Numbered from the stretch's first letter, positions 26,760-38,815 are shown. The stretch is DNA of 64,000 nucleotides from an uncultured Veillonellaceae bacterium (GCA_963805085.1 CAWDTA010000002.1:1152001-1216000), one strand, 5' to 3'. Made by a program: numbers and translations. The notes: generated by a model from the sequence alone, not told the origin.

Positions 26760-26968
26760 ACCGCTGTAACGCTTTCGCGGCGCAGGGGAAAAGTGCAAAG
26801 AAATGCTAATTTTTTTGGTAAATATATAGTGCGAAATCAAAATGCCAATCAACTAACTTTATGTTATTTGTATTGGCATTTTTTATTTATTAGATGTGTT
26901 GAGGTTTATCTTAGAATAAGCCTTATTTATTTGCAATAGAAGACAAAAAATATATAGAATATCTCATC

Positions 26969-27020
26969 TGTAAATAAAGGACATATCTTTTTGACAGATA
27001 GAATGTTAATGATATATAAT
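26969..27020 (+). promoter_or_regulatory. Promoter with degenerate mannan-locus operator
   Basis: TGTAAATAAAGGACATATCTTTTTGACA, then TATAAT at 27015-20 (18-bp spacer). Confidence 0.65.
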
Positions 27021-27227
27021 TCTAAATAAAAATGAATATGTTCTTCTGGAAATAAATACCTAATAAAAGAAGATATTACTTCTAATTTTCAAATATAGTT
27101 GTAAAGAAAATATCGCAATGACGCGTCACATTGGTTTAAATTCTATATGCACTTCAATGTGTTTATTTGCTATTGACGCTACAATAAGAACTATTAAAAG
27201 ATATATGATGAAGGAGAAAATGCAATT

Positions 27228-27941
27228 ATGGTTAAATATCGAGAAATTGCCAAAGATTTGCGAGATAAAATATTAAATAAACTATATTTGCCAGGGGTGC
27301 AGCTTCCTCAGGAAAAGGAAATGTGCCGCACTTATAATGTTAGCCGTATTACGATAAAAAAAGCGGTAGATGAATTGGTTAATGCAGGGCTTGTGATCAA
27401 GCGACGAGGAGCTGGAACTTTTATAAAGTCAGTAAATGATGATGCGGTGAAGGAACTTAGTATGGTACAGCAATTTACTGGTTTTACAGAATCGAATCAA
27501 GGGAAAAGTATCTTTTCGGAGATTATTAGGTTTGAGATAGTTCATCCTTCGGCTGAAGTTGCGGATAAATTGCAAATTGACAAAGACGGTTTTGTTTATG
27601 ATATTATTCGTGCTCGTTATGCGGATAAAGAACCGTTTGTTGTAGAATATACCCAGATGCCATTGGATATCATCCCGGGATTAAAACGTGATGTTTTATT
27701 CGATTCTATTTACCGCTATATTCAAAGTGGATTAAAATTAAAGATTCAGTCTGCGCATCGTGCAATACGAGCAATGTGGCCAAATGAGATAGAACAAAAA
27801 TATTTGAAAATAGATACTAGTTTTCCTATGCTAGAGGTGGAGCAAGTTGCTTATTTGGACGATGGCCGTGCATTTGAGCATTCTATTTCACGACATCGTA
27901 GTGATAAGATTATTTTTAAAACTTTGAGTATCAGAGCTTAA
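27228..27941 (+). CDS. GntR/HutC-family regulator (GmuR-like, UTRA), paralogue 1
   Basis: VSRITIKKAVDELV..RRGAGTF winged HTH plus UTRA domain. Confidence 0.92.
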   Translation: MVKYREIAKDLRDKILNKLYLPGVQLPQEKEMCRTYNVSRITIKKAVDELVNAGLVIKRRGAGTFIKSVNDDAVKELSMVQQFTGFTESNQGKSIFSEIIRFEIVHPSAEVADKLQIDKDGFVYDIIRARYADKEPFVVEYTQMPLDIIPGLKRDVLFDSIYRYIQSGLKLKIQSAHRAIRAMWPNEIEQKYLKIDTSFPMLEVEQVAYLDDGRAFEHSISRHRSDKIIFKTLSIRA

Positions 27942-28057
27942 TTCATAATATTCAGAGACTAGAATGACAATCTACGCGTTTGTACATGATCGTCAAAAGG
28001 ATATTAGACTATCAGCTCTTCGCGGTATGATCTTGATTTATCAAAGTAAGTCCTAAT

Positions 28058-28108
28058 AAAAAAACAGTCATTGAGTGTCTATATTTCCTCAATGACTGTT
28101 TTTTTTTT
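28058..28108. terminator. Bidirectional terminator
   Basis: AAAAAAACAGTCATTGAG / CTCAATGACTGTTTTTTT between convergent genes. Confidence 0.85.
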
Positions 28109-28222
28109 GTAATTCATATAAAAAGTAGCGTATTTTACAGTAGCTAATTTAAAGGTATAAATATCATCCTGTTAGTACAGTAGTGCAATTCAATAGTTTA
28201 TATTTGGGAATTAAATTTGGAA

Positions 28223-29575
28223 TTAGAAGGCGAAGATGAGATTCGAGAAGAAAGCTGTATGATGGGGATGATTCGCGTCATAGTTAGAGTCAATTGCCTT
28301 ACCGAAGAAGACATAGTTCTGCAACTGAATACTCTTCGTGAAGTGGTACCAGACGCTGGCCTCCATGCCCTTGCTGCCTGGTTTTTCACTGCCATTGACA
28401 ACGCTAGACATAATCAGGGCATCAGAGCCGAGGTAACGATAGCCGATGGATGAACCCCAGCGCTTGTCGGTTCCCCATGGACTGCCGTTGTAGACGAGCT
28501 TGAAATCATAGGCTTTGTTCTGATAGTCCTGGTTACCGTGAGAATAGAAGCCCACGAGATTGAGATTGTCGGCCAGCTTCTGACGGGCGTTGAGAGCGAT
28601 AATTCCCAGTCTACTGTCATCATAGGCATTCGGGGACTTCAGGCTGTAGTAGCCAAGGCCGGCAGAAGTCTTGGGCGTAAAAGTATGCTCAGCAGAAAAA
28701 CCATAGACACCAAGCGTATTGTCATCTTTATCGCTTCCGTCATTGTAGAAATCATAGCGATTGCCATGACGGATGAAGCCGTCCGACCAAGGAGAGGACA
28801 GATCAGCATTCTTTTCATACACTTTACCGGTATAGGCGCGAAGTGTAGTTTTACCAACATTGTAGTCAACCTCAACACCTTTGGTGCGGGCATTGCCAAC
28901 AACACCTTCCTGTAAGCTAGGGGTGAAGAGACCAATCGAGGCGTTGAGATCTTTACCGAGCGGGCCCTGGGCATAGAGTCGGTAAATCATGGCATTGACA
29001 TCTTTATTAGATGTGCCATAAAGATCAGAGAAGGATTCTTCCCCATTCCAGCCCTTGGTGTTGGTTCCCCATTTCCAGTCAAGACCGCTGTGGACTCCCC
29101 ATCCATCGCCGATATCGCTATCGACATTCAGGAACAGTTCTTTTTCCCACCAGGTATTGCCGCCTGTAATGCCTTTCATGGCCTTGTTGGCGAAGACGCC
29201 GCTAAATTTTACGTTGCCGGACTTCTTTTCAAGGTTCTGTATGCGGATGCCGAGAGAATTCAACTCATCGGAGAATTCATTAGACAGGCGCTGGATTAGA
29301 GCCTTGTCCTCTTCGCTGGCCTTTTCAGAATGCGTGCGGGCGCTGGCAATCATCTGTGCCATTTCATAGCGGGTGATTGCGCGGTCGCCGCGAAACGTGC
29401 CATCGCCATAGCCCGTGACAATACCGTCATTGGTCAGTTTGGTGACAGCGGCTACCGCCCAGTTATCCTTCGATACATCATAGTATAACTGATCAGCAGA
29501 TGCTGCAGATGCTGCACTTGCGCTGATGATGAGTGTGGATAAGACCGATAGAACAACTTTCTTTTTGTTTCTCAT
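28223..29575 (-). CDS. SLH-domain outer-membrane porin (OmpM/Mep45-like)
   Basis: Signal peptide, SLH domain (DVSKDNWA..GYGDGTFRGDRAITRYEMAQ), coiled coil, VKFSG start of a beta-barrel, C-terminal Phe. Confidence 0.88.
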   Translation of the reverse strand: MRNKKKVVLSVLSTLIISASAASAASADQLYYDVSKDNWAVAAVTKLTNDGIVTGYGDGTFRGDRAITRYEMAQMIASARTHSEKASEEDKALIQRLSNEFSDELNSLGIRIQNLEKKSGNVKFSGVFANKAMKGITGGNTWWEKELFLNVDSDIGDGWGVHSGLDWKWGTNTKGWNGEESFSDLYGTSNKDVNAMIYRLYAQGPLGKDLNASIGLFTPSLQEGVVGNARTKGVEVDYNVGKTTLRAYTGKVYEKNADLSSPWSDGFIRHGNRYDFYNDGSDKDDNTLGVYGFSAEHTFTPKTSAGLGYYSLKSPNAYDDSRLGIIALNARQKLADNLNLVGFYSHGNQDYQNKAYDFKLVYNGSPWGTDKRWGSSIGYRYLGSDALIMSSVVNGSEKPGSKGMEASVWYHFTKSIQLQNYVFFGKAIDSNYDANHPHHTAFFSNLIFAF

Positions 29576-29640
29576 AGTTCTTCCTCTCTCCCATTACTAT
29601 TTAAGTAAAACTTTAAAAAATAAAACTTTACTTAAATACG

Positions 29641-29718
29641 ATAGTACAATAAAGGTGTTACATTGTCAATTAAAAGATATAACTTTTAATTGACAATAGA
29701 TATACTTAATCTTATAAT
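29641..29718. promoter_or_regulatory. Divergent sigma-A promoters sharing a palindromic operator
   Basis: ATTGTCAATTAAAAG-N6-CTTTTAATTGACAAT (29662-97) contains both -35 boxes; -10 TATAAT (+, 29713-18) and TACTAT (-, 29641-46), each with a 17-bp spacer. Confidence 0.85.
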
Positions 29719-29783
29719 TGAAAATGAAAGCAAAAAGCATTAGGCAATGATTTAGTAAAGAAGATAAATAAGAGGAGATGTTT

Positions 29784-29882
29784 ATGAAAGAAAAATTTAT
29801 TAAGGTTGCAATCGTATGTGCGCTCATTGGTGAGACTATACCGGTATTAGCTTTTGCGGCAGTGAGTAGTAAGGATTTATAG
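29784..29882 (+). pseudogene. Signal-peptide-only sORF or truncated secreted-protein relic
   Basis: AGAGGAG RBS; MKEKFIKVAIVCALIGETIPVLAFAAVSSKDL*; reading continues in another frame (IANDPNNKVYIERTAYADNGK). Confidence 0.5.
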
Positions 29883-30004
29883 CTAACGATCCAAATAACA
29901 AGGTATACATAGAAAGAACTGCTTATGCCGACAATGGTAAGGCGAGTAGGATTGCATAGAGGTAGAATTTCAATTATATTTCAAATCAAAAGGAGAATTA
30001 TACG

Positions 30005-32017
30005 ATGAAAAGAAAAAGCTTTGTTTCTTTTATTGTGTTAGTCCTATGTTTTTTTTCAGTAATAACTTTAAAATCAGTTGCTTTAGCTAATGATAGTAAT
30101 GAGCAAAATAGTGATTTTGTGACTCGCCAAGGCGACAAACTTATGTTAAATGGTAAAGAATTTAGATTTTCCGGTTCGAACAATTATTATTTTCATTATC
30201 GTTCTAATAAAATGATTGATGATGTAATGGATAACGCTAGTAAAATGGGATTAAAAGTGATGAGATGTTGGGGCTTTATTGATGGTAATGGGGAAGATAA
30301 AACAACAGACCCCAAAATAGAGATGCAACCCAACATGGGAGAATACGCTGAGAGTGGCTTTGAAAGATTAGACTATGCTATCAAAAAAGCTAGTGAAAAA
30401 GGTATAAAATTAGTTATAGTGTTAGTAAATAACTGGGATGACTTTGGCGGTATGAATGCCTATGTCAATTGGGCAAAAGATCCGAATAGACATGATGGAT
30501 TTTATACTAATGAAAAAATTAAAAGTGCCTATAAAGCTTACGTAAATCACATGCTGAATAGAGTTAATACATATACTGGTGTAAAGTATATGTATGATCC
30601 TACTATTATGACATGGGAATTAACTAATGAAGCACGTTGTGAATCTGATCCGTCAGGGAAAACACTTTTTAACTGGACAAAAGAGATGAGTGAATATGTT
30701 AAATCTGTTGATAATAGCCATCTTGTAGCATTAGGTGAAGAAGGATTTATAAGAGATACTAAAAGTACTATCTTAGAATACAATGGCTCAAAAGGCCTTG
30801 ACTGGGGGCAAGTTATTGCATTGCCAACTATCGACTATGGTACTGTACATTTGTACCCTGATTATTGGGGTGATCCTTGGAAAGATGGCGTGAAATCGGG
30901 TTCTGCTTGGTTAAAAGCTCACGCTGGTTTAGCGAAAGCTGCTAACAAACCTGTCGTTTTTGAAGAATATGGAGTATTAAAAACAAGTGTTACAAATCGT
31001 GATTATGCATACGAAACTTGGAATAATTTAGCATACGAACTTGGTTATAGTGGAAGTATGTTTTGGCTTTTAACAGGTATTGATGATTTAAAGCCAGATG
31101 CAGATGGGCTTTATCCGGATAATGATAGTCTTAGAATCGTATACAATAAAAAAGAAAATGCGGCAAGCGTTAAAATTTTCGAAGAAAATGCAAAGTTAAT
31201 GAATGGTAAAAAAGTAACAAGAACTCCACATATTTATATAACTGCACCAAGTAAAAACGAAAGAATCAAAGATCTTGCTTCTGTAGAAGTTAAAATCATA
31301 CCATATGGTAAAGAAATAAATAACGTATTGTTTTCAACACCAAAAGAGAAAAATATCATAATGAAAGCAAATGCTGGCAGTTACAAGTATGATCTTGATA
31401 TATCCAAAGAAGAAAATGGTAAAATGCCTATTTCAGCTGTAGTTCAATTTAAAGATGGAACCTCTGCAGCTACATCAGATATAATCAACATCCGAAATAA
31501 ACAAGGAAAATTGGTTAGTGAAAAAGTATTTGATTTCAGCAAAGAAATCGATGGATGGGATCAAAATGGCATATATCAATCAGAAATTAAAGATGTGAAA
31601 TACACGAAAGAAGTTGGAAATGGGTCCTTACAGCTCGATGTTAAATTCCCTGGAGCTTCTGATTGGGAAGAACTTAGAATAGCTCTTAAATCTATAGATT
31701 TAACTCCTTATGCCGGCTGTAAGTATGACATATATATTCCCAAGGAAGGATTACCAGCACATGCTCAATTAAGACCGTATGTCGTTGTTACACCAGGCTG
31801 GGTGAAATGTGGTGTAGATCAAAATAATGCTTATATCGGTCAATTACCTACTGTTACATTCAGCGGAAAAGAATATGTAAAATTACAAGTTACAAATATG
31901 TTCAATGGACAAGCAAAAGATAAGAATGAACTTGATATTGATCTGGTTGCAAACATGTTTAAATATGAAGGTCCAATCTATTTTGATAATATTGAATTGC
32001 TTAAGGAGGTAGAATAG
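30005..32017 (+). CDS. Exported GH5 endo-beta-1,4-mannanase with Ig-like and CBM27-like modules
   Basis: Sec signal peptide; NNWDDFGGM, WELTNEAR (acid/base), HLYP, VFEEYG (nucleophile); C-terminal WEE..LRPY..PGWVK..GPIYFDNI as in CBM27-bearing mannanases. Confidence 0.88.
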   Translation: MKRKSFVSFIVLVLCFFSVITLKSVALANDSNEQNSDFVTRQGDKLMLNGKEFRFSGSNNYYFHYRSNKMIDDVMDNASKMGLKVMRCWGFIDGNGEDKTTDPKIEMQPNMGEYAESGFERLDYAIKKASEKGIKLVIVLVNNWDDFGGMNAYVNWAKDPNRHDGFYTNEKIKSAYKAYVNHMLNRVNTYTGVKYMYDPTIMTWELTNEARCESDPSGKTLFNWTKEMSEYVKSVDNSHLVALGEEGFIRDTKSTILEYNGSKGLDWGQVIALPTIDYGTVHLYPDYWGDPWKDGVKSGSAWLKAHAGLAKAANKPVVFEEYGVLKTSVTNRDYAYETWNNLAYELGYSGSMFWLLTGIDDLKPDADGLYPDNDSLRIVYNKKENAASVKIFEENAKLMNGKKVTRTPHIYITAPSKNERIKDLASVEVKIIPYGKEINNVLFSTPKEKNIIMKANAGSYKYDLDISKEENGKMPISAVVQFKDGTSAATSDIINIRNKQGKLVSEKVFDFSKEIDGWDQNGIYQSEIKDVKYTKEVGNGSLQLDVKFPGASDWEELRIALKSIDLTPYAGCKYDIYIPKEGLPAHAQLRPYVVVTPGWVKCGVDQNNAYIGQLPTVTFSGKEYVKLQVTNMFNGQAKDKNELDIDLVANMFKYEGPIYFDNIELLKEVE

Positions 32018-32129
32018 TTCAAATATCAACAGTAATAACAAATAATTATTTCTTAATATCATTAAATTTTTTAATGCAAATAAAAGGAGTAGTTCATAGA
32101 CGAAAAAAAGTAATCTATAATTAATTCAG

Positions 32130-32177
32130 CACAACTCCTGTTTATGGAATTATTTACATAAATGGGAGTTGTTTTTA
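32130..32177 (+). terminator. Intrinsic terminator
   Basis: ACAACTCCTGTTTATG...CATAAATGGGAGTTGT followed by TTTT. Confidence 0.7.
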
Positions 32178-32477
32178 TGAGTGAGAAATAAGATCGATAA
32201 ATACAAAAACAGATTCAGTTCGTTTAAGATTCCTTTTAGTACAGTAAATCTTGTTCGGCATACCAGAACTACGACGGTATTCTATTTTAATAATAAACAA
32301 AATCAAATTTATTAGCTGATGCAATGATAGATTGTAAAGATCAGTATAATTTTTTAGGATATTTAAGAGCTAAACTTGGTGTAAATATAGGAAATTGTTA
32401 ATTTATTGCCAGCATTAAATTTGCCCAAAATTCTGGTAGTCAAGATTTGTCGGAGACGAATTAAATTGTGTTAAACA

Positions 32478-32552
32478 TGTCGATAAAGAACATTTCTTTT
32501 GTCAATAAAAGATATATCTTTTATTGACAAAGGGAATGTCTAGACGTATAAT
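32478..32552 (+). promoter_or_regulatory. PTS operon promoter with tandem operators
   Basis: Perfect 34-bp palindrome TTTGTCAATAAAAGATATATCTTTTATTGACAAA (32498-531) overlapping TTGACA-N17-TATAAT; degenerate second site just upstream. Confidence 0.88.
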
Positions 32553-32608
32553 CTTTATAGGAAGAAAAAAGTAACAAGATGAACTAATAGAAATCAGGAG
32601 GCAGGAAG

Positions 32609-32908
32609 ATGAATATTTATTTAGTTTGTAACGCGGGAATGTCGACGTCTATTTTAGTTAAAAAAATGCGAGATGCAGCGATAACTCACAATATCGATGT
32701 GAATATTGAAGCTTTTTCAGTAGAAATATTGGATGAAAAAATAGGATCAGCTGATGTGGTCTTATTAGGACCACAGATTCGTCATATGTTAGCAGATGTG
32801 AAGAAAATGGTAGGTGATCAATGTCCGGTAGACGTTATTGACATGCGTGATTATGGCATGATCAATGGAGAAAAAGTGCTAAGTAAAGCATTAAAATTAA
32901 TTGGATAG
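32609..32908 (+). CDS. PTS cellobiose/lactose-family EIIB (GmuB-like)
   Basis: CNAGMSTS, LLGPQ, DYGMING. Confidence 0.93.
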   Translation: MNIYLVCNAGMSTSILVKKMRDAAITHNIDVNIEAFSVEILDEKIGSADVVLLGPQIRHMLADVKKMVGDQCPVDVIDMRDYGMINGEKVLSKALKLIG

Positions 32909-32922
32909 GAGGAGAAAATTAA

Positions 32923-34233
32923 ATGGGTAATGCTGTTGTAAAACTTGAAAAGGTAATAATGCCAGTTGCAGGGGTGATTTCTAGTAATAAATATTTGCTA
33001 GCGATGCGGGATTCATTTTCAATTATCTTACCATTTATGATTGTTGGTTCAATTTTTGGGATTTTGAGTTGGGTTGTCCTTGATCCACAAGGTACTGTTA
33101 TGGGGGCGAATGGCTTAAATTTAGGTCCATCTATTACGGGCTTGAACAGTGAAGAGTACCTAATCTCTGACTTTGTTATGAAGTTGAAAAATTTGCAGAC
33201 TTTGTGTGGATTAGTTACGACAATTGGTTTTGATGTATTTTCACTTCTTTTAGTTTTGTCTTTTTCCTATCGTTTAGGTGGTATCTGGGGCGGTGAAAAA
33301 TTTATGACTGCAATAACTGGTGTTGCGGCATTTTTAATTGTTACACCACAAAAAATCGGTGATGCAGGCGGTTTTAGTACTGGTTATTTTGGTAGTAAAG
33401 GTGTTTTGACAGCTATTATTGTTGCGACAGTAGCTTCATGGATTTTTGTTAAGCTATCAAGCAATAAAAAACTTAAAATAGCAATGCCAGACAGTGTTCC
33501 CCCAGCTGTATCTCAGTCTTTTGCAGCACTTGTTCCAGTTGGCATAACTTTAGGCCTTTTTGCTGCTTTTGCGGCGATTTTAATTTGGTTTGATATACCT
33601 GCTCTTAATAATTTGATTTATTTGGCAATCCAAGCACCTCTTTTGGGGTTTTCTCAAGGGTTTGGATTTTCGGTCTTATATCAGTTTTTAGTTTGGTTTT
33701 TCTGGTGGTTTGGTATCCATGGACACAATGTTACAGCAGCAATTCAAAATTCAGTTTATATGCCTGCTCAGCTTGCCAATCAAGCAGGTGATGCTTCTTA
33801 TATTTTCAGTAACGGATTTTTTGAAGCTGGTTTAATGCATGTCATGGGGTTGGTTATTGCTATTTTTTTATTTTCAAAGAAAGACAGTTGGCGGGCAGTT
33901 GCTAAAATTGGTGCACCAGCTATGCTCTTCAATATTCAGGAACCACTCGCATTTGGTCTTCCAATCGTACTTAATCCAATTTTATTGATCCCGTACATTT
34001 TGGCGCCATTGGCTAATACTGTAATTGGCTGGTTGTTTATTTCAGGTGGGCTGGTTCCGATTTTTCGCTTTGTGGTTCCTTGGACTATGCCAATGTTTTT
34101 TTGCGGTATGATTGGTACAGGTTCTCTAGCTGGGGGGCTATTGCAATTGGTATGGCTTGTAGTAGATATCTTAATTTATTCACCATTTGTTATAGCATCA
34201 AATAGGATTAAAGATATTGTCGAAGAAGAATAA
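32923..34233 (+). CDS. PTS cellobiose/lactose-family EIIC (GmuC-like)
   Basis: IAMPDSVPPAV, WFGIHG, FNIQEPLAFGLPIVLNP. Confidence 0.93.
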   Translation: MGNAVVKLEKVIMPVAGVISSNKYLLAMRDSFSIILPFMIVGSIFGILSWVVLDPQGTVMGANGLNLGPSITGLNSEEYLISDFVMKLKNLQTLCGLVTTIGFDVFSLLLVLSFSYRLGGIWGGEKFMTAITGVAAFLIVTPQKIGDAGGFSTGYFGSKGVLTAIIVATVASWIFVKLSSNKKLKIAMPDSVPPAVSQSFAALVPVGITLGLFAAFAAILIWFDIPALNNLIYLAIQAPLLGFSQGFGFSVLYQFLVWFFWWFGIHGHNVTAAIQNSVYMPAQLANQAGDASYIFSNGFFEAGLMHVMGLVIAIFLFSKKDSWRAVAKIGAPAMLFNIQEPLAFGLPIVLNPILLIPYILAPLANTVIGWLFISGGLVPIFRFVVPWTMPMFFCGMIGTGSLAGGLLQLVWLVVDILIYSPFVIASNRIKDIVEEE

Positions 34234-34336
34234 ATAACCTCGCATAAAAGTTAAAATAATTAGCAGTGCAGCCCCTTGTGCGGTTGGGAAGCATTTCACC
34301 CTAAGTATATTATTTATGAATTTGGAGGAAAATTTG

Positions 34337-34654
34337 ATGGATGAAAAAATAGTAGAACAGTCCATGCAATTGATTTTATACGCTGGTGCAGGACGTTCCA
34401 TGGTTGTAGAAGCAGTACAGAATCTATTAGAAGACAATGATGTTGTAAAAGCGAGAGAAGCTATCGCTGTGGCTGGAAAAGAAATAGGTAAAGCACATGA
34501 GATTCAAACTGCACTTATGGCAGAGGAATGTGATGGGAAATCGGTAGAAAAATCAATTCTCTTAATTCATGCACAAGATCATTTCATGAGTGCTTTGACT
34601 GTTCGGGATATGGGGTTACTTATGACAAGAATGTATGAAAAATTGAAGAAATAA
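34337..34654 (+). CDS. PTS cellobiose/lactose-family EIIA (GmuA-like)
   Basis: AHEIQT, LLIHAQDHFM. Confidence 0.93.
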   Translation: MDEKIVEQSMQLILYAGAGRSMVVEAVQNLLEDNDVVKAREAIAVAGKEIGKAHEIQTALMAEECDGKSVEKSILLIHAQDHFMSALTVRDMGLLMTRMYEKLKK

Positions 34655-34695
34655 AGAGTATATTTATAATATAGATTGCTAAAGGACTGGATGTT

Positions 34696-35379
34696 ATGCG
34701 TGAAGAGATGATTTATAATCCGAATTATTATCAACTGCGTGGTTATATGATTGAAACAATGGAAAAGATTATTGCTGTAAATCAAAAATCGAAATCGCAT
34801 GGGGTTTTGTTTTTTGGTGATTCGATTATAGAATGGTATGATATTGAAAACTATTTCCCGGAAATAAGAATAAAATATAATTCGGGAATTTGCGGTGCGA
34901 CCTCTGAATCCTTACGCTGGATTTGTGATGAAGCTGTGATCAAGTATAAACCCCAGGTTATAGTGTTAATGGTGGGAACGAATGATTTTGGCAATACAAA
35001 TATGAGAAGTCCCAGAGAGATTGTCCAGAATGTGCAAATTTTGCTTGATTTAATTCAAGGAAATTTGCCCAATGCCCATATTTTGTTACTAGAAACACTA
35101 CCCTGTGATGAAAATTTCCAGGGGAGCTTTGTGGGAAAAAAGATGCGATCTAATAAAATGATTGCTTTATTAAATGAGGAATATAAAAATATGGAGCAGC
35201 TTTTTCCTAACTTAGTTTTGGTTCCAACTTTTGAATTTTTCTTGGATAAACACCAAAATTCAATCATTCCTAAATATACAACAGATGGATTGCATTTGAG
35301 TGAGGCTGGATATGTTAGATTAACTCAAATCATTAAGCCTGTTTTAATCCAATATATAACCGATTTTAATTTAAACTAG
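34696..35379 (+). CDS. SGNH/GDSL hydrolase, candidate acetylesterase
   Basis: FGDS, G, GTND and DGLH blocks; no signal peptide. Confidence 0.85.
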   Translation: MREEMIYNPNYYQLRGYMIETMEKIIAVNQKSKSHGVLFFGDSIIEWYDIENYFPEIRIKYNSGICGATSESLRWICDEAVIKYKPQVIVLMVGTNDFGNTNMRSPREIVQNVQILLDLIQGNLPNAHILLLETLPCDENFQGSFVGKKMRSNKMIALLNEEYKNMEQLFPNLVLVPTFEFFLDKHQNSIIPKYTTDGLHLSEAGYVRLTQIIKPVLIQYITDFNLN

Positions 35380-35428
35380 ATAAGCTACATCATCCTGTAT
35401 TAAATATCAATAGGTAAAAGAAATAGAG

Positions 35429-36838
35429 GTGGCAGTTTTGAGTATAAAATATAAATTCCCAGAAAAATTTTGGTGGGGGGCAGCGACCTCGGGTCCACAG
35501 ACAGAAGGTCGCTTTAATAAAAAACATGCAAATATTTTTGATCATTGGTTTGATATTGAAAAAGATACATTTTTTAATGGCATTGGACCAAATGTTGCGT
35601 CCAATTTTTACAATAGTTATAAAGAAGATATAAAATTAATGGCGGATATTGGGCTGGATTCATTGCGGACATCTATTCAATGGACGCGGTTGATTAGAAA
35701 TTTTGAAACTGCCGAAGTTAATGAAGAAGCTGTTGATTTCTACAATCGTGTAATTGATGAATTTCTTAAAAACCAAATTACGCCTGTAATCAATTTACAT
35801 CATTTTGATTTACCAGTTGAATTATATGATAAATATGGTGGTTGGGAATCAAAACATGTGATCGAATTATTTGTCTTATTTGCTGAAAGGTGTTTTGAGC
35901 TTCTTGGCGATAGAGTAAAAAATTGGATTACATTTAATGAGCCAATGGTCATTGTCGAAGGTCAATATCTGTATAAATTTCACTATCCAAATCTTGTGGA
36001 TGGAAAAAAAGCCGTCCAAGTTTTATACAATTTGAATTTAGCTTCAGCCAAAGTGATTGCTGCATTTAAACAATCAAAATGCGCAAAGCAAGGCGGTGAA
36101 ATTGGTATTGTATTGAATTTAACACCTGCTTATCCCCGCTCACAAGCTGACGAAGATGTGAAAGCAGCGGCGTTTGTTGAAGATTTTTTCAATAAGTCTT
36201 TTCTGGATCCGGCGGTAAAAGGTGAATTTACCCCATCGTTAGTTCAAACATTACGAGAAGATGATGTATTATGGGAATCTACGCCGGAAGAGTTGATGAT
36301 TATCAAAAACAATACAATTGATTTTTTAGGTGTTAATTATTATCAGCCGCGTCGGGCTAAAAGCAAAGAAGTTGTTTGGGATATAGAAAAAGGCTGGATG
36401 CCTAACAAATATTTTGATGATTACGAGATGCCGGGACGCCGAATGAATCCTTATCGTGGTTGGGAAATATATCCTCAAGCGATGTATGATATTGCAATCA
36501 ATATTCGTGATTATTATAATAATATTCGTTGGTATGTGTCGGAAAATGGCATGGGCGTTGAGGGAGAAGAAAATTATCGCAACGCAGACGGTTTAATCGA
36601 AGATATATATCGCATTGATTTTTATGAAGAACACTTAACCTATTTGCATAAAGCAATTCAGGAAGGAGCAAATTGCTTCGGCTTTCATGCTTGGACACCG
36701 ATTGACTGCTGGTCATGGTCGAATGCTTACAAAAATCGTTATGGCTATATAGCAGTTGACTTAGCAACTCAAATCAAAACAATAAAAAAATCGGGCTATT
36801 GGTTTAAAAATGTAGCAAAGAATAACGGATTTTCATAA
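35429..36838 (+). CDS. GH1 6-phospho-beta-glucosidase/mannosidase (GmuD-like)
   Basis: WGAATSGPQTEG, TFNEP, YVSENG, WSWSNAYKNRYG. Confidence 0.92.
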   Translation: MAVLSIKYKFPEKFWWGAATSGPQTEGRFNKKHANIFDHWFDIEKDTFFNGIGPNVASNFYNSYKEDIKLMADIGLDSLRTSIQWTRLIRNFETAEVNEEAVDFYNRVIDEFLKNQITPVINLHHFDLPVELYDKYGGWESKHVIELFVLFAERCFELLGDRVKNWITFNEPMVIVEGQYLYKFHYPNLVDGKKAVQVLYNLNLASAKVIAAFKQSKCAKQGGEIGIVLNLTPAYPRSQADEDVKAAAFVEDFFNKSFLDPAVKGEFTPSLVQTLREDDVLWESTPEELMIIKNNTIDFLGVNYYQPRRAKSKEVVWDIEKGWMPNKYFDDYEMPGRRMNPYRGWEIYPQAMYDIAINIRDYYNNIRWYVSENGMGVEGEENYRNADGLIEDIYRIDFYEEHLTYLHKAIQEGANCFGFHAWTPIDCWSWSNAYKNRYGYIAVDLATQIKTIKKSGYWFKNVAKNNGFS

Positions 36839-36849
36839 AATAATAAGAA

Positions 36850-36933
36850 GCAAGGGTGTTCCTAGATGTATTTTATTAGCGATGTTTGATCAAGCATCGC
36901 TAGAAAATGTATGTGGGACATCCTTGTTTTTTA
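36850..36933 (+). terminator. Long hairpin terminator
   Basis: About 80-nt imperfect stem-loop CAAGGGTGTTCC...GGGACATCCTTG followed by a T tract. Confidence 0.7.
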
Positions 36934-37036
36934 TATTCTATAAGATATGTTTTTTACAAGATAAGGTCAGTTCTAATTTTAAGTTAGGATAAAAAGTGAT
37001 ATAATAAAAATATCTATGAACAAAGGAGAAAGTCCG

Positions 37037-37750
37037 ATGATAAAATATCAAGAGATTGCTGGGGATATAAGAAAAAACATTTTAGCAGGAAAATATTTGT
37101 CGGGAGAACAACTGCCCCTTGAAAAAGAGATGTGTAAACAGTATGATGTAAGCCGTATTACAATCAAAAAAGCAGTGGATGAGCTGGTGAAGTTAGGTTT
37201 TATTATTAAACGGCGCGGATCAGGTACCTTTGTTAAGTCGATTGATGATGAAGAGGCAAAAGATCTCAGTATGGCTAGACAATTTACAGGATTTACTGAA
37301 ACCAATAAAGGCAAAGAAATTCGGACTGAAATTGTTAAGTTTGATGTTGTACATCCTGATAATGAAATTGCTGCAAAATTGCAAATTGCTACGGATGATT
37401 TTGTATATGATATTATTCGGGTTCGTTTTGCCGATGAGATACCAATTGTTATCGAATATACCAAAATGCCGATTAATTTGATTCCTGGGATCAAACATGA
37501 TGTTTTGTTAAAATCCATTTATTTTTATATTCAGTGTCAATTGAAGCTCAAAATTCAATCGGCACATCGTTCGATTCGAGCAATTTTGCCTAATGAACTT
37601 GAGCAGCAGCATTTAAAGATTGCGGGGACATTCCCTTTATTAGAAGTAGAACAGATTGCTTTTTTAGATGATGGGCGGGCTTTTGAATATTCAATCTCGC
37701 ATCATCGCAGTGATCAAATTGTTTTTAAGACAGTGAGTATCCGGCAGTAA
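37037..37750 (+). CDS. GntR/HutC-family regulator (GmuR-like), paralogue 2
   Basis: Closely similar to 27228-27941 over its whole length. Confidence 0.92.
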   Translation: MIKYQEIAGDIRKNILAGKYLSGEQLPLEKEMCKQYDVSRITIKKAVDELVKLGFIIKRRGSGTFVKSIDDEEAKDLSMARQFTGFTETNKGKEIRTEIVKFDVVHPDNEIAAKLQIATDDFVYDIIRVRFADEIPIVIEYTKMPINLIPGIKHDVLLKSIYFYIQCQLKLKIQSAHRSIRAILPNELEQQHLKIAGTFPLLEVEQIAFLDDGRAFEYSISHHRSDQIVFKTVSIRQ

Positions 37751-37849
37751 ATTTTACGATAGTGAATTCTTTAAGGAGTATAGTATTTTTATTATAATAC
37801 AGTAAATATGAAAGAAAATACATAATGTAGTAAAAGGAGTAATGTAATC

Positions 37850-38815
37850 ATGTTATATCCATTAAAACTCACGGCACCACTCAAAGATTATATTTGGGGA
37901 GGTACTGCTTTAAAAACAAAATACAATAAGAAATCAAATCTTGAAAAAGTTGCGGAAAGCTGGGAACTTTCTTGCCATAAAGATGGACAGAGCCTGATTG
38001 CAAATGGTGTAGCTTCCGGTATGACATTAGCCAGCTATATTGAGCAGCAAGGTAAAAAAATTTTAGGAAGTAATGCGGATCGGTTTACTTATTTCCCACT
38101 TCTTATTAAATTAATTGATGCGAAAGATAATTTATCAGTGCAAGTGCATCCAGAAAATGAATATGCACTTCGCGTTGAAGGTGAATATGGCAAGACTGAA
38201 ATGTGGTATATTGTTGATTGTGAACCAGGTGCCGAGCTTTTATATGGTTTCAAAAATGAAATATCAAAAGCAGAGTTTCAGCAGCGTATTGAGGATAATA
38301 CGTTATTAGAAGTGTGCAATAATGTACCTGTTAAAAAAGGTGATGTATTTTTTATCGATGCTGGTACTTTACATGCCATCGGGAAAGGTATTTTAGTTGC
38401 TGAAATACAACAAAATTCGAATACAACCTACCGCATCTATGATTATGGACGTTTGGGTAATGGGGGCAAACCACGTGATTTACATGTACAAAAAGCACTT
38501 GATGTAACTAAATTGAGCCGTCCAATGAAACCGACAACCCCTGAAGCTGAAATGCATTTTTTTGCTGATTATGATATGAAACTATTAGCTCAGTGTGAAT
38601 ATTTTACGGTCTATCATTTTGACCTTATCAAAACATGCAATTTAAAAGCTGATAAGGATACGTTTCATTCCATCCTCGTATTGGAAGGTGGCTTGACACT
38701 TTGTTATGAAGAAGGAAAAATGGTCTTGAATAAAGGTGAAAGTGTATTTATTCCTGCTGGGTTAGGTGAATATAGTTTACAGGGTAAGGGCGAATTTATT
38801 TTAAGTATGGTATGA
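37850..38815 (+). CDS. manA: Mannose-6-phosphate isomerase, type I
   Basis: IWGG, FPLLIKLIDA, LSVQVHP, GKTEMWY, GTLHAIG, EIQQNS. Confidence 0.95.
   Translation: MLYPLKLTAPLKDYIWGGTALKTKYNKKSNLEKVAESWELSCHKDGQSLIANGVASGMTLASYIEQQGKKILGSNADRFTYFPLLIKLIDAKDNLSVQVHPENEYALRVEGEYGKTEMWYIVDCEPGAELLYGFKNEISKAEFQQRIEDNTLLEVCNNVPVKKGDVFFIDAGTLHAIGKGILVAEIQQNSNTTYRIYDYGRLGNGGKPRDLHVQKALDVTKLSRPMKPTTPEAEMHFFADYDMKLLAQCEYFTVYHFDLIKTCNLKADKDTFHSILVLEGGLTLCYEEGKMVLNKGESVFIPAGLGEYSLQGKGEFILSMV

Follow-up and report, generated by a model that had tools for sequence, protein, structure and literature searches.

How fragments of beta-mannan cross the outer membrane of a diderm Firmicute is the question raised by a locus of ten genes (open reading frame calls; families assigned with Pfam and NCBIfam) at positions 26969-38815 of a 64,000-nucleotide stretch of DNA from an uncultured Veillonellaceae bacterium (GCA_963805085.1 CAWDTA010000002.1:1152001-1216000; hereafter the window). 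Alongside an exported mannanase and a phosphotransferase system (PTS), this locus encodes a porin of the OmpM family, whose members have so far been treated as general pores that also tether the outer membrane in diderm Firmicutes. Judged by sequence and context, the porin is very likely linked functionally to mannan use. We further consider it fairly likely that it is a specialised OmpM, a member of a beta-mannan regulon and most plausibly the entry channel for manno-oligosaccharides, with some selectivity. The first-pass annotation of this DNA had already proposed an OmpM paralogue as the manno-oligosaccharide channel; that proposal now draws support from gene linkage, a distinct porin clade and a shared operator, and under it the porin would be both inducible and selective.

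By family the porin is an OmpM, a porin tethered through a surface-layer homology (SLH) domain, as its sequence indicates. The SLH domain is recognised at residues 31-73 (PF00395, E 9.2e-11), and the elements that define the SLH motif in the available excerpts of PMC10628300 (Trp, Gly and TRYE) are present as W39, G63 and T68-R69-Y70-E71, all conserved in an alignment of 25 orthologues. The closest solved relatives are structures of Veillonella parvula OmpM1 (8bys, E 5e-29, and 8bym, E 9e-28, by phmmer), and the chain ends in ...IFAF, that is, with a terminal Phe. An AlphaFold2 model based on the 25 orthologues (mean predicted local distance difference test score, pLDDT, 74.9) contains SLH helices, a helical stalk and a barrel; the stalk helices, 88-100 and 102-118, precede the first strand, with pLDDT below 50 at 109-120. 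The best four Foldseek matches to this model are OmpM1 chains (8bym/8bys; E ~2e-16, TM 0.73-0.76), and 16-stranded general porins occupy the ranks that follow. The barrel of the window porin is itself probably 16-stranded, a count read from the DSSP string of the model and not measured.

The link to mannan use rests first on the company that the gene keeps. The orthologue group is sharply bounded: about 60 database proteins share at least 50% identity with the porin (86% in Pectinatus frisingensis, 85% in Propionispira raffinosivorans, 61% in Selenomonas ruminis), after which identity drops to 31%. A scan with the orthologue alignment, using one genome per species, gave 74 loci, which were compared with the window proteins by tblastn and whose neighbouring genes were assigned with Pfam. 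Nineteen orthologous loci were obtained at an identity of at least 48%, 17 from the scan and two from Propionispira genomes. Three were left out as uninformative: L017, a 1.5-kb contig; L024, in which the porin lies at the contig start; and L029, the second half of the L031 gene. Absence of the porin from orthologous loci, which the first-pass annotation had thought would tell against its proposal, is not what was found. Each of the 16 orthologous loci with usable flanks (from Selenomonas, Anaerovibrio and Propionispira) has mannan genes no more than 8 kb away: a mannanase of glycoside hydrolase (GH) family 26 or 5 in 13 of them, and gmu-type PTS, GH1 and ManA genes. Of the 70 further SLH porins contained in these loci, by contrast, not one has mannan neighbours.

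This association has been retained through at least five gene arrangements. In L019, L028, L030 and L041 (and in L020, a fragment of the same) the order is IIB-IIC-IIA-GH1-GH26-GntR-porin-GntR-ManA on one strand, and in L021 it is ROK-ManA-PTS-GH1-GntR-ABC-porin-GH26/CBM11, where ABC denotes an ATP-binding cassette gene and CBM a carbohydrate-binding module. The PTS operon is divergent from the porin in L022, in L023 and, with GH26 between them, in L027. Four Anaerovibrio loci (L018, L025, L026 and L031) lack a PTS in the flank; in them ROK, CE2 (a carbohydrate esterase family), GH26 and GH26-CBM11 genes run divergently from the porin. Propionispira locus L093 keeps the unit of GntR-1, porin and GH5-CBM27 with the PTS operon inverted on the other side. 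The L023 locus, from one Selenomonas metagenome-assembled genome (MAG), also contains an IS21-type element (rve integrase plus IstB; L023:7730-9860) inserted between the PTS operon and the porin, which parts the porin from the operator region.

The porins themselves form a lineage of their own. A tree of 108 sequences, 95 from the loci and 13 from the window genome, was computed with a quick IQ-TREE run, with support from the Shimodaira-Hasegawa-like approximate likelihood ratio test (SH-aLRT) only. It places all 31 mannan-linked rows, together with L017, which has no flank, in one clade (SH-aLRT 100, stem length 0.98). Housekeeping OmpM proteins, to which the window porin is about 30% identical, form a separate clade of 65 rows that includes two members of a tandem trio next to LptF/G in the window genome; for the remaining paralogues of that genome, which have long branches, the tree gives no safe position. 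The mannan clade divides into a branch of 450-residue porins, the window porin among them, and one of porins of about 530 residues, which are often encoded as tandem pairs beside GH26-CBM11, CE2 and a secreted 215-residue CBM27-like protein. At 15 barrel positions an aromatic residue is found in at least 90% of the window-type clade and in at most 30% of the housekeeping rows. Opposite F148 of the porin, all 65 housekeeping rows have Arg, and opposite Y198, 43 of the 65 have Lys. Strand periodicity would place W142 and F148 on the lumen side.

The secreted protein of about 215 residues beside the 530-residue porins (L040:8930-9577, minus strand; L043:11714-12373, plus strand; L035:8903-9544, minus strand) is related to the CBM27-like N-terminal module of GH26-CBM11 mannanases, and in L040 an operator lies between its gene and the porin. 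This protein may be a mannan-binding partner of the porin.

Further evidence comes from the promoters. A consensus scan of 26800-32700 found exactly three TTGACA-N17/18-TATAAT promoters that match at all 12 positions, and each starts at the right edge of one operator core (Table 1). Across the whole 4.2-Mb genome, the 18-nt core with at most one mismatch matches these three sites only. A reversed control pattern gave six strand-hits genome-wide against five for the core, so the count alone is not significant and the argument rests on placement at promoters. A strict search for the 34-nt palindrome returned a single site because the PTS copy is 2 nt shorter. A 14-mer search gave four matches against 1.16 expected, one of which, at 35561 inside the GH1 gene, is probably due to chance. 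The first-pass annotation had described a shared palindrome at three promoters. A core beside a perfect promoter is indeed present at all three places, but the copy upstream of GntR-1 is degenerate.

The same element accompanies the porin in its relatives. Allowing two mismatches at most, a search for the 16-nt core gives 36 matches in the 25 mannan-linked loci (422,669 bp), whereas the 48 loci of other porins (763,673 bp) give none. Matches fall in the spacer that separates the porin from the gene divergent to it in L018, L022, L025, L026, L027 (two copies), L031 and L040, and also upstream of IIB in operons that contain the porin. Porins of several genera, in different gene arrangements, thus have the operator upstream. 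In Propionispira the porin and GH5 have separate operator copies, the porin-proximal stretch being nearly identical to that of the window; O3, the copy before the PTS operon, is identical in Propionispira raffinosivorans. The putative porin promoter is the best minus-strand site in the spacer between porin and GH5, and the stretch is conserved in Propionispira. Downstream, a hairpin between the convergent porin and GntR-1 genes would end both transcripts; its loop placed it outside our terminator scan (loop limit 8). Because of this hairpin, the porin looks monocistronic, and it appears to be controlled from the shared operator.

Two features of the porin-GH5 spacer stand apart from this argument. 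An open reading frame of 32 codons (29785-29883), with a signal-peptide-like sequence, its own Shine-Dalgarno-like AGGAG and a stop codon at its end, separates the shared operator and promoter from the start of GH5; it may be a leader peptide or else a remnant. Propionispira lacks any equivalent of the stretch 29792-29968 and has a second operator copy in that place.

Together these features suggest how the locus might operate. The Sec-exported GH5-CBM27, as its enzyme family implies, would cut (gluco/galacto)mannan, either beyond the outer membrane or in the periplasm. The products of endo-mannanases are mostly larger than what the pores of OmpM1 and of Selenomonas ruminantium Mep45 pass. In the available excerpts of the respective reports, monosaccharides pass V. 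parvula OmpM1 and disaccharides do not (PMC10628300), and the rate of raffinose passage through Mep45 is not detectable (PMC5020339). Because the general pore excludes disaccharides or shows no detectable raffinose passage, the oligosaccharides need another route, and being too large for the general OmpM pore they would pass the outer membrane through the mannan-locus porin. At the inner membrane a PTS of the lactose/cellobiose family would import and phosphorylate them; the SGNH esterase would then deacetylate, the GH1 phospho-glycosidase would split the products and ManA would convert mannose-6-phosphate to fructose-6-phosphate. One or both of the HutC-type GntR repressors may bind the AAAAGATATATCTTTT operator, whose sequence runs into the -35 boxes at the promoters of GntR-1, porin/GH5 and the PTS. 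With the operator in this position, production of the porin would be confined to conditions in which mannan products are available.

Every gene family of the first-pass list (OmpM-like porin, GH5-CBM27, PTS, SGNH, GH1, GntR and ManA) was recovered where it had been placed, as was the divergent arrangement of the porin and the exported GH5, for which a signal peptide is predicted. A second GntR/UTRA regulator, GntR-1, convergent with the porin, is added here; it is 88% identical to its Propionispira orthologue, which adjoins the porin there too. The best structural match of the GH5 is the full-length GH5-CBM27 mannanase 6tn6 (E 5e-160), with 3pz9 also matched, and its CBM27 module matches 1of3 (E 6e-38). 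Its signal peptide is of the Sec type and lacks a lipobox. Within the locus only the porin and GH5 have signal peptides; the esterase, GH1 and ManA have none, and the esterase is probably a deacetylase acting on imported acetylated oligosaccharides. The flanks are unrelated by Pfam, with an amino-acid ABC transporter upstream and LysR and major facilitator superfamily genes downstream.

Table 1. Genes and regulatory elements of the mannan locus (window coordinates), followed by OmpM paralogues at nine other uptake loci of the same genome (contig:coordinates).
Feature	Position	Strand	Basis or remark
Operator O1, degenerate core TAAAGGACATATCTTTTT, upstream of GntR-1	26975-26992	.	1 mismatch in 18-nt core; arms weak
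Sigma-70 consensus promoter TTGACA-18-TATAAT for GntR-1	26991-27020	+	12/12; abuts O1
GntR-1, GntR/HutC-type regulator (GntR helix-turn-helix + UTRA)	27228-27941	+	Pfam
Bidirectional intrinsic terminator between convergent GntR-1 and porin	28057-28108	.	A-run, perfect 11-bp stem, 12-nt loop, T-run; read from sequence
OmpM-family porin, mannan-locus clade, 450 aa	28223-29575	-	Signal peptide, SLH with TRYE, helical stalk, beta-barrel, C-terminal F
Putative porin promoter TTGACA-17-TACTAT	29641-29669	-	10/12; -35 is left arm of O2
Operator O2, 34-nt palindrome TTGTCAATTAAAAGATATAACTTTTAATTGACAA, common to divergent porin and GH5 promoters	29663-29696	.	Core 29671-29688
Consensus promoter towards GH5	29690-29718	+	12/12
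Exported GH5 endo-beta-1,4-mannanase, C-terminal CBM27, 670 aa	30005-32017	+	Pfam, PDB matches
Operator O3, 32-nt palindrome TTGTCAATAAAAGATATATCTTTTATTGACAA, before PTS operon	32500-32531	.	Core 32506-32523
Consensus promoter of PTS operon	32524-32552	+	12/12
PTS IIB, lactose/cellobiose family	32609-32908	+	Pfam, NCBIfam
PTS IIC, lactose/cellobiose family	32923-34233	+	Pfam; TIGR00410, 262 bits vs cut-off 236
PTS IIA, lactose/cellobiose family	34316-34654	+	Pfam, NCBIfam
SGNH/GDSL esterase, cytoplasmic	34696-35379	+	Pfam; no signal peptide predicted
GH1, 6-phospho-beta-glycosidase type	35429-36838	+	Pfam; closest PDB 4b3k, 5foo, E 1e-191
GntR-2, GntR/HutC-type regulator (GntR/UTRA)	37016-37750	+	Pfam
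ManA, class I mannose-6-phosphate isomerase	37850-38815	+	Pfam; TIGR00218, 181.9 bits vs cut-off 116.2
Paralogue, N-acetylmuramic acid (MurNAc)-type PTS with MupG	C2:630877-632109		Neighbours by Pfam
Paralogue, LevR-controlled cellobiose-type PTS with GH1	C2:920604-921959		Neighbours by Pfam
Paralogue, GH53 galactanase, lactose-type PTS, GH1	C4:377125-378654		Neighbours by Pfam
Paralogue, DcuC	C2:616724-618223		Neighbours by Pfam
Paralogue, glucose-type PTS, GH13, X25-GH13 pullulanase, GH4	C5:148370-149638		Neighbours by Pfam
Paralogue, GH28, CE8, SGNH (pectin)	C4:305224-306690		Neighbours by Pfam
Paralogue, GH67 with GPH transporter	C5:371846-373204		Neighbours by Pfam
Paralogue, Opp and OPT peptide transporters	C2:1545908-1547209		Neighbours by Pfam
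Paralogue, BglG/PTS/GH1 beta-glucoside locus	C2:1629050-1630420		Neighbours by Pfam

Several observations weigh against a dedicated, mannan-regulated channel. Among the sequencing runs checked, no RNA run covers the locus, and no run contains more than 0.17 of the sampled words. The fold is of the general 16-stranded type and not that of the 18-stranded LamB-type sugar channels, as judged with Foldseek. Three of the 16 orthologous loci (L022, L023 and L032) have no mannanase within 8 kb, only PTS, GH1, GntR or ManA genes. In Anaerovibrio the operator is nearer the GH26 start (~75 bp) than the porin start (~260 bp), so porin control is less certain there. The tether, too, may be altered in part. 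The Tyr that follows the SLH Trp in OmpM1 (Y36) is highly conserved without being defining, and is proposed to recognise polyaminated peptidoglycan in Negativicutes, in the available excerpts of PMC10628300. At this position the window porin has V41; members of the window-type clade split V7/Y7/I1, and Y is found in 14 of the 15 rows that make up the 530-residue clade and in 62 of 65 housekeeping rows. The residue after it, A42 in the window porin, is D in all 65 housekeeping rows, and the pair varies within the window sub-clade. Because the window porin has V-A for the housekeeping Y-D, a polyamine-peptidoglycan contact of the Y36 type may be relaxed. A same-genus genome, G001, returned no porin at E 1e-40 or better, a result that is uninformative because its contigs stop at the locus edges (C245, end 12521, inside the porin 3' end; C216, end 13808, at the far edge). 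The assembly or bin thus lacks the locus interior from porin to ManA, which points to an assembly gap rather than absence. In a Massilibacillus MAG (G043, 2.9 Mb) no orthologue was found at E 1e-60 or better, a result that we leave uninterpreted because no completeness is given for this MAG.

The porin gene also seems to have a different history from its neighbours. Its GC content is 0.493 and its GC content at third codon positions (GC3) 0.565, against GC3 values of 0.23-0.32 for the other nine genes of the locus and a genome GC of 0.374. The Propionispira porin is likewise GC-richer (0.47 vs 0.36 for its locus), whereas in Anaerovibrio and Selenomonas porin and locus agree. Since the branch of the window, Propionispira and L017 porins is sister to the Anaerovibrio branch, this contrast suggests that the porin gene was recruited separately, from a donor of about 50% GC, with codon selection as the alternative. 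The locus as a whole is 83-89% identical to that of Propionispira, against mostly 66-83% for flanking genes, which are located elsewhere there, and the similarity ends at window positions 27211 and 38811.

The general-porin fold and nearest structures also fit an account in which the porin shares the regulation of the mannan genes but is simply a wider diffusion pore without selectivity, which would raise the permeability of the outer membrane to oligosaccharides at large and have neither a binding site nor a preference for mannan products. Known OmpM proteins are non-specific in the available excerpts of PMC10628300 and PMC5020339, and a lumen-facing sugar-binding track in this porin is only putative. 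We nevertheless regard such a pore as unlikely. The clade and its sub-clades stay mannan-linked through many rearrangements, which suggests a substrate-tuned function, and the genome has separate OmpM paralogues at loci for galactan, pectin, pullulan and beta-glucosides; were the pore generic and wide, a paralogue for each substrate would not be needed.

These paralogues are informative in their own right. The window genome (G000; 4.2 Mb, five contigs, 83% complete) has 13 SLH-porin genes, and the neighbours of the other 12 were annotated with Pfam. Ten of the 13, the window porin included, lie in substrate-specific uptake loci (Table 1), and only the tandem trio (C2:142012-146943), which adjoins LptF/G, is in an outer-membrane biogenesis context. 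The isoelectric point (pI) of the barrel is 8.8-9.1 at the four loci with predicted anionic substrates (pectin, GH67/glucuronides, DcuC/dicarboxylates and MurNAc), 5.3-6.5 at the neutral-sugar and peptide loci and 4.6-5.1 in the housekeeping trio, a pattern of 13 data points from one genome that again argues against a non-selective pore. For the galactan porin, all seven matches at 41% identity or above, from seven genomes of four families, adjoin GH53 (L119-L125, in G034, G065, G057, G012, G145, G149 and G137), and six of the seven also PTS and GH1; the three weaker matches examined (31-38% identity) have neither GH53 nor PTS/GH1. The pectin case is only partly supported, since two of four matches outside G000 keep GH28/CE8 adjacent (in G001 and in G012, from another family) and the other two (32-35% identity) have no adjacent GH28/CE8. 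We consider it evenly balanced whether the many OmpM copies of Negativicutes arose as a radiation of porins dedicated to single substrates and embedded in their regulons, each uptake locus for a glycan, peptide or acid having a paralogue whose pore chemistry suits the substrate.

Pairing of the porin with a large exported CBM-bearing mannanase or CBM27-like protein could also mean that it carries no substrate, and acts instead as a docking or display site for the mannanase or as a local outer-membrane-to-wall tether for enzyme export; an outer-membrane secretion route for mannanases was not identified in this analysis. This is very improbable: the three orthologous loci noted above keep PTS/GH1/ManA without a mannanase, and paralogues occur at loci that lack an exported enzyme (MurNAc PTS, Opp/OPT peptide transporters and DcuC), a better fit to uptake. 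That a housekeeping OmpM copy merely happens to lie beside a mannan island, as its deviant base composition and the many OmpM genes of the genome might suggest, is scarcely credible against linkage in every usable orthologous locus and in none of the other porins, a single clade and an operator in the porin promoter region.

A mannan-responsive entry channel built on OmpM would bear on a wider puzzle. A 2021 OmpM preprint, in its available portion, calls the reason for the many copies in Negativicutes unknown. Six Mep45 paralogues are undetectable under laboratory conditions and the conditions of their expression remain to be found, according to the accessible part of PMC5020339. The proposed answer is that OmpM copies are wired into individual nutrient regulons, and the pairing of porin and mannan genes may explain why Negativicutes carry so many. 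Full-text literature searches found no OmpM or SLH porins linked to glycan loci, although subscription journals and supplements to OmpM papers could hold such mention. The OmpM family and sugar porins within regulons are both known; what would be new here is a regulon-embedded sugar porin built on the OmpM scaffold. If this reading is correct, Selenomonadaceae of the rumen and gut would have a route for the uptake of hemicellulose fragments. If the wider expansion also consists of substrate-dedicated porins, nutrient-induced porins that keep the wall-tethering stalk would add to outer-membrane attachment. The mannan-clade porin could also serve as a marker gene for annotating mannan loci in diderm Firmicutes.

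OmpM1 and Mep45 share with the window porin the signal peptide, a single SLH domain with TRYE, a helical stalk, an OmpF-like barrel and the C-terminal Phe. They are, however, abundant, constitutive and non-specific, and are encoded in an outer-membrane biogenesis cluster, whereas the window porin is part of a catabolic regulon and of a distinct clade with its own aromatic residues, and no longer has the Y/D pair that follows the SLH Trp.

Functionally, the nearest counterparts are the regulon sugar porins of Proteobacteria: LamB (mal), ScrY (scr, with a PTS), KdgM (oligogalacturonate), BglH (in the bgl operon of PTS, phospho-beta-glucosidase and porin) and ChiP (the chitoporin, with the chb PTS). 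In these systems, as in the window, a passive channel is encoded, and apparently co-regulated, with the transporter, hydrolase and repressor for one glycan, and BglH and ChiP likewise pair a porin with a PTS and a phospho-glycosidase. Sugar porins are recognised by being encoded with the catabolic genes for one sugar, and the linkage at all 16 loci together with an operator over the porin -35 box, which would bring it under the same control, gives the window porin that character. The scaffold differs, an OmpM barrel with a putatively peptidoglycan-binding SLH stalk in place of the 18-stranded LamB, OprD or 12-stranded KdgM folds. The 47 Foldseek rows listed (ranks up to 50) include no chain of the LamB type, and the Escherichia coli chitoporin 7vtz stands at rank 11. 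Because its best structural matches are OmpM1 and 16-stranded general porins, the window porin is not of the LamB family and can only be a possible functional analogue. We know of no characterised porin for mannan.

The catabolic half of the locus resembles the Bacillus subtilis gmuBACDREFG operon, in which GmuE is a ROK-type kinase and GmuG a GH26 mannanase. Shared are the Lac-family PTS IIB/IIA/IIC, the GH1 phospho-glycosidase, a GntR repressor, mannose-6-phosphate isomerase and a secreted mannanase. The likeness drawn by the first-pass annotation thus extends to family content but not to the ROK kinase, which is missing, or to the mannanase, which is GH5 and not GH26: neither ROK nor GH26 genes were found in 26969-38815 by Pfam, and GH5-CBM27 fills the mannanase role, while both are present in Selenomonas, Anaerovibrio and Mitsuokella loci. 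Bacillus, moreover, is monoderm and has no porin, whereas the window locus has a porin, two GntR regulators and an added SGNH esterase.

The SusC/SusD loci of Bacteroidota resemble the window locus in that each serves one glycan and combines an import component of the outer membrane with an exported endo-enzyme, hydrolases acting downstream and a regulatory gene. They differ in that the window locus would import passively across the outer membrane and has a PTS at the inner one. The first-pass description of a porin in place of SusC/D stands. The SusD-like family PF07980 has no match in this 83% complete genome, with a positive control in Bacteroides thetaiotaomicron, and the four matches to the TonB-dependent receptor family PF00593 are on contigs C1, C3 and C4 and none on the contig of the window. 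Since this search turned up no SusD-like gene, locus prediction based on SusC/D should find nothing at such loci in diderm Firmicutes. If the OmpM expansion does reflect substrate-dedicated porins, loci of this kind would represent a third design of polysaccharide-utilisation locus, beside the SusC/D loci of Bacteroidota and the ABC/PTS loci of monoderm Firmicutes.

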